From a virus: a stretch of 64,000 nt of DNA. The translations under genes and the position numbers were made by a program. Positions 29,295-41,968 of the stretch are shown here, piece by piece. Location of the stretch: IMG/VR virus record IMGVR_UViG_3300044510_000078; one strand, given 5' to 3'. The number at the start of each line of letters is the position of its first letter. Positions within the stretch are counted from its first letter, which is position 1. The notes under the pieces were generated by a model. The model was not told the origin of the DNA. It saw nothing but the letters and a program-made list of their open reading frames with translations, and searched no databases.

Positions 29295-29344
29295 AAAATA
29301 AGGAAAATCCTTGCCATTCCTGCAAAGTCTGGTAATATCTTTGC

Positions 29345-29977
29345 ATGATGAATCGTGCAACCGCCCTTGAAATTGTTGGCGGACTTTCCACTCCCTCAAA
29401 AATGCCGTGTCACTCTTTTTCCATTCCGGCGCGACATTGCCTTGTCGGGCAAAAGTTGCGTGATGTCGAGGGGTCAATTTGTTCCAAGTGTTACGCTTTG
29501 AAGGGGCGTTATGGATTCAAAAATGTTCAAACCGCGCTAGACCGTAGGTTTGAAAATTTGAATCACCCACTTTGGGTTACGGCAATGGCTTGGCTTTTGA
29601 ATAACGTCGAGAAAAGCGGCTTTTTCCGTTGGCACGATTCCGGCGACTTGCAAAGCGTTGAACACTTGGGGCGAATCGTTGAAGTGTGCAAACTGACTCC
29701 CGGCGTGAAGCATTGGCTTCCCACCCGTGAGTTTGGGATTGTTGGGGACTTCATCCGTGGCGGTGGTATCATTCCTGATAATCTCACAGTCCGTTTTTCC
29801 GCTTTGATGTTTGACGGTCAACCGCCCGTGACTGCGGCTCGCAATCTTGGCGTGCAAGTGTCGAGCGCAAGCAAAGAAAACTTTACTTGCCCCGCCTCAA
29901 AACAGCAAAACCAGTGCGGCGACTGTCGCGCTTGTTGGGATAAGTCGCGGTTTGACATTTCCTATAAGAAACACTAA
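29345..29977 (+). CDS. GP88-like Cys-rich protein (radical-SAM-like)
   Basis: SKMPCHSFSIPARHC...SICSKCYALKGRY, FRWHDSGD, HWLPTRE, CGDCRACW. Confidence 0.75.
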   Translation: MMNRATALEIVGGLSTPSKMPCHSFSIPARHCLVGQKLRDVEGSICSKCYALKGRYGFKNVQTALDRRFENLNHPLWVTAMAWLLNNVEKSGFFRWHDSGDLQSVEHLGRIVEVCKLTPGVKHWLPTREFGIVGDFIRGGGIIPDNLTVRFSALMFDGQPPVTAARNLGVQVSSASKENFTCPASKQQNQCGDCRACWDKSRFDISYKKH

Positions 29978-30057
29978 AAAATATGGCCATTCTAATCACG
30001 GCATTAGTTTTCGGCGTGTTTGTTTCTTTGTTTGTTGGAGCAATAGTCAATCCGCCA

Positions 30058-30129
30058 TAAGTCATTGGCTGCTAAGGACTTAGAAGGGCGGGCGGCGAAA
30101 TCCGTAACCAATTGAAATTCAATTGATTA
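30058..30129. repeat. Paired-dyad element
   Basis: TAAGTCATTGGCTGCTAAGGACTTA - 22 bp - TAACCAATTGAAATTCAATTGATTA. Confidence 0.85.
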
Positions 30130-30593
30130 CAAATTATCAGCAAGCATGGTCAACCACTCGCATCCCACCATCGTATCGCTCAGTCCGTTTGCGCGGAAGG
30201 TTCGCCCGACGCCTTAGCCTTGTCCGTTGTTGCTTGCTAAAAATGTGACGGCAGGCGGACATCGCACCCGCTTGGAGACTCGCCAACAGCTACCCTTGCT
30301 GCCGTCAGAAATTTAATGGGGCGCGTATCGCTCTCCCCCTCGCGCTAACCTTATATTGTTTGAGCGGTGGTTACAGCACCCGCTTTTGCCTCACTTTACT
30401 TGGCTCTCGGCTTCAGCTACTCGATACGAGGTCAGCTTTCGCTGGTGGTGTCGCACTTTGGGTTCTGCCACTGGCCGTTTAGTAAAGGCTCTTTGATATG
30501 TTCCGTGACTTTTGAGAGTTTAGCGTCAAACATTTTGCGAATGACGCCGCGAAGTAAGTCTCGCTCTACGTAACACACCAAAGAACCTTCAAC
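30130..30593 (-). ncRNA. Candidate large structured ncRNA (about 460 nt)
   Basis: TTGCAT-17-TATTCT promoter (30629-30601) with no nearby start codon; GC-rich, multiple inverted repeats. Confidence 0.55.
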
Positions 30594-30655
30594 TGTTAAT
30601 AGAATACCATAAAACGAAAAAAAATGCAAGCACTTTTTTGAACTTTTTTCCATTT

Positions 30656-30726
30656 TAAGCCATTGAAACTCAAGAACTTACGAGGCGAACGGGCGGCGGC
30701 GTAAATCCTTGATAGATAACAGTTTG
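30656..30726. repeat. Paired-dyad element between divergent promoters
   Basis: TAAGCCATTGAAACTCAAGAACTTA - 21 bp - TAAATCCTTGATAGATAACAGTTTG. Confidence 0.85.
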
Positions 30727-30791
30727 TAAAATCTCACTTTTTTCAGAAAGAAAGTTGTTGACCTTTTGCGGCTTTGTGATACTCTTTTTAC

Positions 30792-31034
30792 ATGATGAAC
30801 GACTTCACCGCCCTAAACGCAGAAACCGAAACGTCCGCCTTCGCCAAGTTCACTACCGAGGAACACGCCGAATATCAGGCGTGGCTCGACGAGCGTGAGC
30901 AGGAAACACTTGAAGAAAAGCAGCAGCGTAAGCTCGACGCATGGCGCAAGTGGGGCGAAAAAATGGCATTTCTCCGTCAAATTCACGAGGAAATTGCGCC
31001 CCTCATCGCAGCGCGCAAGGCCGCACTCGAATAA
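30792..31034 (+). CDS. Hypothetical protein (80 aa)
   Basis: TTGACC...TGATACT promoter. Confidence 0.75.
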   Translation: MMNDFTALNAETETSAFAKFTTEEHAEYQAWLDEREQETLEEKQQRKLDAWRKWGEKMAFLRQIHEEIAPLIAARKAALE

Positions 31035-31324: not shown

Positions 31325-31428
31325 GAGGGCTATTTAGCGAAGTGGGTGTTCGTTTTTGGAATGCTATTTCGAGTGCCAGATGTTCATTTTTAAGTTGACT
31401 TTTTAGAGTTTTCTGATAATATCTTTTC

Positions 31429-31683
31429 ATGCTTAGTGAATACGATAAGACTCACCTCGACGAAATCCTCTGTGGTCATGGAGATTGGTTCACAGCGCAG
31501 CTTTTGCGTTTGATTGCGAAGTCTGACTTGAGCAATCGAGCGCGGCTGACGAAGGGTTTTCCTGAAGAAGTCGCCCTTGTCAACAAATATCAGTTTGGCG
31601 AGCCAGAAGATTCAACAGTCATGTGCGAAAATTGCCATTCTGCCGTGCATCACACGAACGAGTGCATTTATTCCCGACGCTAA
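31429..31683 (+). CDS. Hypothetical protein (84 aa; DWFTAQLLRLIAKSD..NRARL..GFPEEV)
   Basis: TTGACT-17-TAATAT promoter; leaderless ATG. Confidence 0.8.
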   Translation: MLSEYDKTHLDEILCGHGDWFTAQLLRLIAKSDLSNRARLTKGFPEEVALVNKYQFGEPEDSTVMCENCHSAVHHTNECIYSRR

Positions 31684-41338: not shown

Positions 41339-41968
41339 TCAATGCTTTTTGTAGGAAATGGAAAAAACTTCTTTAGACCAACAGGAGCGACAAGTTCCGC
41401 ACTTGTTTCCCTGATTTGAAGCCGGACAAGTGAACGAGTCTTTTGACGCTCCTGAAACTTGCAAACCAAAACGATTCGCAATTGTAACCGGCGCAGGGCC
41501 ATCAAACATCAGAGCCGACAAGCGAACGCAAAGGTTTTCGGGAATTGAATTTCCGGCATTGACATATTCTGCTACAATGGAAAATTCACGAGTCGGCAAC
41601 CAATGTTTGACTTGCGGAGTATGTTCCGCAATGGCGCAAATTCTCGAAAGATGCTCAACGCTTTGAATGTCGCCGCTGTCGTGCCAGCGAAAAAAGCCAC
41701 TTTTCTCCATTGTGTTCAAAAGGAAAATCATAGCCTCTACCCATTTAGGATGATTCAACGCGACGAATCGCTTCTCTAGTGCGGTTTGAACATTCTTAAA
41801 AACATAACGCCCCTTTAGAGCGTAGCACTTTGAGCAAATAGAATTTTCCACAGCACGAAGTTTTTGCCCCGTGATACAATACCGCGCAGGGATTGAATAC
41901 CCATAACACGGCATCTTAGATGGGGAAGAAAGTCCGCCGACAATTTCCCATGCGAGGTTTTTATTCAT
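41339..41968 (-). CDS. GP88-like Cys-rich protein, paralog of 29345-29977
   Basis: SKMPCYGYSIPARYC...SICSKCYALKGRY, FRWHDSGD, HWLPTRE. Confidence 0.8.
   Translation of the reverse strand: MNKNLAWEIVGGLSSPSKMPCYGYSIPARYCITGQKLRAVENSICSKCYALKGRYVFKNVQTALEKRFVALNHPKWVEAMIFLLNTMEKSGFFRWHDSGDIQSVEHLSRICAIAEHTPQVKHWLPTREFSIVAEYVNAGNSIPENLCVRLSALMFDGPAPVTIANRFGLQVSGASKDSFTCPASNQGNKCGTCRSCWSKEVFSISYKKH

Follow-up and report, generated by a model that had tools for sequence, protein, structure and literature searches.

GOLLD and ROOL RNAs, which run to ~600–800 nt and assemble into multimeric cages, are often found in phages or prophages near tRNA genes. To our knowledge, the non-tRNA structured RNAs of phages are poorly catalogued as a group, with roles known for hardly any of them, and two, RNAC and RNAD of phage T4, are as far as we know still unexplained decades after their discovery. 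Both GOLLD and ROOL are structured RNAs free of ORFs, and GOLLD was first found in lake metagenomes (bioRxiv 10.1101/2024.12.08.627333). The T4 pair are phage-encoded, ORF-free RNAs of intermediate size, of unknown function, that come from or lie near tRNA genes (PMC3014915).

In this work, we analyzed a 64,000-nt stretch of DNA (the window) from an uncultured lake-water phage. The window carries 20 tRNA genes by Rfam and ARAGORN, also encodes two RNA ligases and, based on exact protein look-ups, is part of a 197,734-nt phage genome. A first-pass annotation had singled out one ORF-poor slot within it as a candidate large ncRNA of 460 nt, by analogy with GOLLD and ROOL. Our analysis instead indicates that the slot probably holds a stand-alone noncoding RNA gene on the minus strand, in which a conserved core of ~170 nt is embedded in a transcript of ~355 nt. 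The promoter belongs to a family of this phage, a rod-shaped hairpin follows it, the core is conserved and covaries among its copies, and no ORF is conserved. Judged from sequence comparison, the locus probably represents a new family of small structured RNAs, as opposed to a 460-nt giant RNA or a small-protein gene.

Cassette architecture around the RNA slot

A GP88-family gene (29345–29977, plus strand) lies immediately upstream of the RNA slot, and the early region as a whole consists of repeated units in which paired quasi-palindromic sites flanking a GC-rich spacer come first, an A/T tract second and a promoter last. Repeat analysis and direct reading of the sequence indicate that the cassette promoters pair a CTTGC-type −35 element with a TG-extended −10 element, and the repeat families of this promoter/operator cassette comprise D1–D5 and the inverted pairs I6, I17 and I23. 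The paired dyads that had been noted at both ends of the slot are indeed present. One pair of sites with its GC-rich spacer occupies 30655–30730 (minus strand), upstream of the RNA promoter, where it forms a cassette boundary of repeat family I17 and D1/D3 type, and a second pair lies downstream of the slot at 30058–30130. The architecture of the upstream boundary site is also present in related phages. Specifically, L050:5840–5880 and L057:12841–12905 each retain boundary sites of this kind, as paired quasi-palindromes of 25–27 nt around a GC-rich spacer, which suggests that they may be a regulatory or processing signal common to the whole lineage.

The content of the slot is not syntenic, since the nearest GP88 relative (protein 88% identical) shares with the window only the small ORF downstream and the cassette boundary that comes first, with complete divergence beyond that point, while in other relatives small genes occupy the position of the RNA.

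Several additional features of these neighborhoods were observed. A second GP88-family paralog is located at 41342–41968 on the minus strand and is 69% identical to the copy at 29345–29977, and of the four RNA copies or hits, three have a GP88 gene within 5 kb in their own genomes. Directly after GP88, a mini-ORF (29983–30060, plus strand) encodes a hydrophobic 25-aa peptide, and its stop codon doubles as the opening triplet of the cassette-boundary site. The closest relative (L007) retains a diverged version of this ORF, and for this reason the product is probably a genuine small membrane peptide. In several cassettes an ATG falls ~6 nt past the −10 hexamer (29330–29352, 30777–30799 and 31414–31436) with no Shine–Dalgarno sequence visible, and given this spacing these early genes appear to have little or no leader. 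A 2.5-kb interval without called genes in a related phage (L053:1927–4396, from an NCBI MAG assembly) gave no match to the RNA models and is probably a further cluster of tRNA or ncRNA genes.

Promoter, 5′ rod and predicted transcript limits

With respect to initiation, the TTGCAT-17-TATTCT promoter proposed in the first-pass annotation is present on the minus strand at 30629–30601, and it matches the cassette type of the phage itself. The −35-like TTGCAT lies at 30629–30624, followed by a 17-nt spacer and the −10 TATTCT at 30606–30601, which is preceded by TG to give an extended −10 (TG-n-TATTCT, 30609–30601). This promoter resembles the other cassette promoters of the phage (D2, D5 and I23); it fits the generic sigma-70 consensus only weakly, and a generic sigma-70 scan did not report it. 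The +1 predicted for it falls near 30594 (minus strand). The description of the slot as ORF-poor also holds, with no ORF longer than 73 aa in the ORF list. Two further statements about the 5′ end were not borne out. A start codon had been said to be missing there, and an in-frame TTG (30581) and GTG (30578) are found 14–17 nt past the +1; the boxA-like stretch is accounted for by a long hairpin, whose 5′ arm it forms, and is missing from the other copies.

This hairpin is a 116-nt rod (30479–30594, minus strand) that begins at the predicted +1 and is composed of an outer stem of ~21 bp and two inner hairpins. Its minimum free energy is −45.7 kcal/mol (z −6.58), which none of 200 shuffled sequences equaled. 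The plus-strand complement is far less stable (−27.5, z −1.81), indicating that the rod fold is specific to the minus strand, where its stem is rich in G-U pairs. The rod is confined to the window copy of the RNA, and both the orphan ORF discussed below and the boxA-like stretch are located inside it. When the whole 465 nt was folded, the minus strand was slightly better than its shuffles (z −1.93), whereas the plus strand was worse (z +1.38).

At the opposite end, a branched hairpin (30239–30307, minus strand) has a 9-bp stem (30299–30307/30246–30254) followed by five U residues at 30243–30239. No canonical terminator was called at 30239–30307 by the terminator scan, and the folding energy of this element (MFE −25.7, z −0.84) is not significant. 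There is no gene on the minus strand of the window below 30239, where a cassette boundary and then the convergent GP88 operon follow. The branched hairpin and U-run near 30239 are the probable end of the transcript. The inner arm of this hairpin is loosely like a T-arm, and the whole is loosely like an acceptor and T-arm stack; a relationship to the T-arm region downstream of the paralog described below was considered and rejected, as the local alignment score of 28 was not significant against 22.7 ± 3.6.

The remainder of the interval originally assigned to the RNA (30130–30238) lies past the U-run, with a 10-bp inverted repeat closing it. Its folding is not significant (z −0.60), and no match to it was found in any locus compared. 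A size of 460 nt is therefore not supported, given that only ~170 nt is conserved, that neither the 116 nt at the 5′ end nor the 3′ hairpin is shared with other copies, and that 30130–30238 falls beyond the terminator-like hairpin. What stands of the proposed large ncRNA is a novel minus-strand ncRNA gene, without the large size.

A conserved core and its copies

The family is defined by a core of ~170 nt (30308–30478, minus strand) identified with nhmmer and a covariance model, and it comprises three clear members and a possible, weak fourth, with two of the clear members being paralogs in one genome. The sequencing runs found to carry the region include no RNA run and contain lake-water DNA contigs identical to the window, and the other contigs containing the exact ORF are likewise 100% identical and so provide no variation. 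Comparison of lake metagenome contigs with the region returned such identical copies together with one 205-nt contig that matches only 30319–30370 and has different flanks. A pattern built from features common to the window and this contig led to a locus, L036, in JGI metagenomes. The copy found there (L036:727–889, also L044:3317–3503) aligns to window positions 30470–30308 on the minus strand with ~80% identity (nhmmer E 6e-21), and no alignment between the two is found on either side of the core. Exact look-ups placed its neighboring genes on the same 197,734-nt contig as the window, and by sequence index the copy is 126.8 kb before it; the copy is thus a paralog from the same genome. A promoter (TTGACA-16-TATCTT) is present on the same strand ~30 nt upstream of the conserved block of the paralog.

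A covariance model derived from the window copy and the paralog was used to find a third copy, an ortholog at L050:5536–5737 in a related 194-kb phage (E 5.5e-12). The ortholog is positioned directly 3′ of a tRNA-Met gene, with the core starting 10–15 nt past the tRNA, and the window copy is 3.6 kb from its nearest tRNA. The neighboring GP88 protein of the ortholog phage is only 62% identical and all flanks are unalignable; overall, the flanks of the core are unrelated in every copy. A public call for a 136-aa gene (L050:5499–5909) starts inside the T-arm of the tRNA-Met and runs across the RNA core, and it is almost certainly a false gene. A fourth and weaker match, at L057:12651–12716, was obtained with a covariance model of the 3′ domain (E about 0.07–0.18), and by sequence it is a possible member of the family.

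Additional searches did not extend this set. A DNA search of a phage collection with 29900–30800 gave no match, IMG/VR loci anchored on proteins yielded only distant GP88 relatives and none with the RNA, and scans of viral contigs and genome contigs with exact or degenerate patterns returned nothing or chance matches. Covariance-model searches of ~300 kb of GP88 neighborhoods from other related phages likewise produced no further members.

With regard to known RNA families, Rfam 15 at gathering thresholds matched only tRNAs elsewhere in the window, and in permissive mode the best scores across 29900–30850 (19 and 18 bits) fell below their thresholds (70 and 100). On the paralog locus, Rfam detected only a T-arm fragment ~250 nt downstream and no riboswitch family. 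ARAGORN called no tRNA or tmRNA in the slot at normal thresholds, and its relaxed calls were inconsistent. These results agree with the earlier remark that the slot lacks tmRNA, RNase P and SRP hallmarks, as the corresponding Rfam models, like that of 6S, are unmatched. Rfam likewise supported none of the resemblances that had been entertained, to T-box elements, group II intron domain V, RNase P and ZTP.

Other putative RNAs were seen near the copies. Just past the paralog core (L044:3520–3770), a second promoter is followed by two putative RNAs, one rod-like (MFE z −2.25) and the other tRNA-shaped and ~100 nt long. The latter has a canonical T-arm, a 7-bp acceptor-like stem and a U-run at its end; the tmRNA model matches its T-arm only, and ARAGORN makes no call on it. 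The weak fourth match is contained in an ORF-free stretch of ~500 nt (L057:12310–12840) that extends from a promoter to paired dyads, and the transcript of this stretch opens with AUGUCGGG, as do the rod and tRNA-like RNAs beside the paralog.

Secondary structure of the core

The 5′ domain of the core (30402–30476, minus strand) contains the helices P1 (30476–30474/30404–30402), P2 (30470–30467/30411–30408) and P3a (30456–30451/30429–30424), as well as P3b (30433–30444), a 4-bp hairpin with a GNRA tetraloop that has an invariant CACCACC on its 5′ side and GACC on its 3′ side. These four helices occupy the same columns in a tool-made alignment of three sequences. Across P1–P3b, 84% of cells are paired as compared with 65% in shuffles, and nine pairs have changed on both sides where 3.7 would be expected, these counts being made on the same sequences from which the helices were read; neither value was reached in any of 500 shuffles. 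Sliding the partners by 1–3 columns lowered pairing to 21–35%. P1 of the paralog is one column off register and requires a 1-nt realignment, and P3a is half open, in its middle, in the ortholog. The P3b stems (CAGC/GCUG, CAAC/GUUG and CGCA/UGCG) are fully paired in all three sequences with three of the four pairs changed on both sides, and the loops read GAAA, GAAA and GCAA.

In the 3′ domain, P4 (30363–30384, minus strand) is a 7-bp hairpin with one bulged G and a loop of variable sequence. Among the clear members, all three of which are free of disruptive changes, A-U is replaced by C-G at the closing pair and G-C by G-U at a second pair; one P4 pair is broken in the weak fourth match. A near-invariant single-stranded linker (30346–30362, minus strand; CAAACAAUAUAARG plus 3–5 nt) connects P4 to P5 (30321–30345, minus strand), in which a 5-bp GC helix (30341–30345/30321–30325) closes a near-invariant 15-nt loop containing GGGGGAGA. 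The sole change in the P5 helix is C-G to U-G, and this best-conserved block is present in the weak fourth match as well. An H-type pseudoknot in P5 was ruled out by loop-length reasoning. The four helices listed in the first-pass annotation can all be formed where they were placed; the inner GCG/CGC pairing of 30318–30338 is nonetheless opposed by a G-to-A change in the ortholog. P5 is preferred at this site because it tolerates all observed changes, with the G-to-A of the ortholog falling in its loop.

The invariant unpaired elements of the core are CACCACC, the CAAACAAUAUAARG linker and the P5 loop with GGGGGAGA. Within the window, targets complementary to the linker occur in chance numbers only. 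Core folding energies are no better than those of shuffled sequences in the three copies (z −0.5, −0.1 and +0.5). Among these 3–4 sequences, the generic signature of a structured ncRNA is found in the form of conservation between unrelated flanks together with compensatory pair changes.

Alternative explanations

Two of the alternatives to an RNA gene invoke coding. An orphan ORF (30432–30581, minus strand) is found inside the rod with its end overlapping the core, and it would specify 50 aa from the TTG/GTG at 30581/30578, 33 aa from the ATG at 30542 or 73 aa from 30653. In a small-protein gene, the 33-aa or 50-aa product would be the functional unit and the rest an untranslated tail. Consistent with this, a GAAGG is located 7 nt before the GTG, and the last 10 codons fall in the conserved block, where the paralog keeps a similar 14-codon end (sense frame 2). 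However, the 73-aa ORF matched only itself among 5.8 billion clustered proteins, and a full HMMER search of 1.84 billion representatives with the 50-aa version recovered itself and two chance-level fragments. In addition, the paralog promoter sits within the would-be ORF and leaves only 14 codons, the ortholog shifts frame, and the start codons are buried in the −45.7 kcal/mol hairpin. None of the six reading frames is kept across the three copies, each being interrupted by stops in at least one of them, and the paralog has a 1-nt insertion within the best-conserved block. With neither a conserved frame nor protein homologues found, the orphan ORF is probably not a gene, and a small protein is very unlikely to account for the locus. 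The outcome that had been set in advance as telling against an RNA, an ORF conserved as protein without RNA covariation, is the reverse of what is seen here, namely an orphan ORF and an RNA that covaries. A plus-strand protein, represented by a ~20-aa peptide common to the two paralogs within the ORF at 30367–30573, draws on antisense frames that are unusually open and on our own count of the 5′ block, in which six of eight substitutions between the paralogs are synonymous in one antisense frame, a pattern that alone would fit coding. Nonetheless, two stops lie upstream of 30367 in the window, the best-conserved 60 nt are outside the ORF and upstream of its only possible start, a frameshift is required in the paralog, and in the ortholog the frame contains a stop and specifies an unrelated peptide. 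The protein database searched held no candidate homologues of the antisense 68-aa ORF, there is no plus-strand cassette promoter, and the paralog ORF would run antisense through the promoter into the neighboring gene. We give this explanation almost no weight.

The remaining alternatives accept the conserved block and differ as to its meaning. The core could be a nonfunctional remnant, left by duplication of part of a shuffled cassette or mobile element and now decaying, with its recent origin as the only reason for the conservation. The early region does consist of shuffled cassettes, the closest relatives have other contents in the slot, and the folding energy of the core is unremarkable. 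We nevertheless view such a remnant as unlikely: the core is kept in a phage whose GP88 is only 62% identical and whose flanks are unalignable, changes are concentrated in helices with pairing preserved, and each copy has either a same-strand promoter or an upstream tRNA. A cis-acting leader or riboswitch for a downstream gene would fit the further same-strand transcription units found downstream of the paralog and the ortholog. In the window, however, nothing lies downstream on the minus strand, where the cassette boundary and convergent operon come next, which makes a cis-regulatory role unlikely; a separate promoter also intervenes in the paralog, and no riboswitch family is matched. Taken together, we consider a leader function highly improbable, and a stand-alone structured RNA remains our preferred reading.

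A model for the RNA and its significance

In terms of mechanism, we envisage that host RNA polymerase would start at the phage cassette promoter, with +1 near 30594, and transcribe ~355 nt to the branched hairpin and U-run near 30239, both ends being predicted positions. The first 116 nt would fold into the rod, equivalent to about two helical turns, which could serve as a processing or stability stem, for example as an RNase III-type substrate. The functional part would be the core at 30308–30478, in which the 5′ domain (P1–P2–P3) would place its GNRA-capped hairpin beside the invariant CACCACC, and the 3′ domain would join two hairpins through the invariant A/U-rich linker, the second of them presenting the invariant G-rich 15-nt loop. 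The rod, together with the tRNA adjacency of the ortholog, suggests processing from a longer precursor. From the position of the core directly 3′ of a tRNA in the related phage, we infer that it may be released as a stable RNA by tRNA/rRNA-type processing. The core might then act in trans, its invariant unpaired segments binding a protein or another RNA, in the setting of a phage with 20 tRNAs and an RNA-repair toolkit, and might have some role in a tRNA/RNA arms race.

A more specific proposal is that the core is one module of an unusually large stable-RNA repertoire encoded by this phage, one that also includes rods and tRNA-shaped RNAs and that it has a biochemical role of its own. It could be an RNP subunit or guide, or a decoy that uses the invariant, Shine–Dalgarno-like G-rich loop to titrate the ribosome or a host defense nuclease that targets tRNA or other RNA. 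We regard this proposal as doubtful; if it is true, the family would constitute a new functional class of RNA and not another orphan motif. More generally, the locus offers a compact new candidate family, one with clear core boundaries, invariant loops and a secondary structure open to testing, that is duplicated in one tRNA-rich, RNA-repair-equipped lake phage and present in relatives. Its covariance models, coordinates and promoters provide a handle on how phages use stable RNAs other than tRNAs. Annotation is corrected as well, since gene callers have placed a 73-aa or a 136-aa ORF over the RNA in different genomes.

Comparison with known phage RNAs

Relative to the systems described at the outset, the closest likeness is to T4 RNAC and RNAD, in that the ortholog is likewise located directly 3′ of a tRNA; the two are not known to be related to it in sequence or structure. 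The window copy differs from them in having its own promoter and no adjoining tRNA, and the host and phage lineage are unrelated. The analogy with GOLLD and ROOL drawn in the first-pass annotation does not carry over, as the conserved core here is ~170 nt as compared with ~600–800 nt, and the Rfam models of both families are unmatched. A resemblance to the tmRNAs and tRNA-like RNAs that large phages encode is seen in the ortholog, where the core is followed by a T-arm-like hairpin, whereas the core itself is without tRNA-like features.
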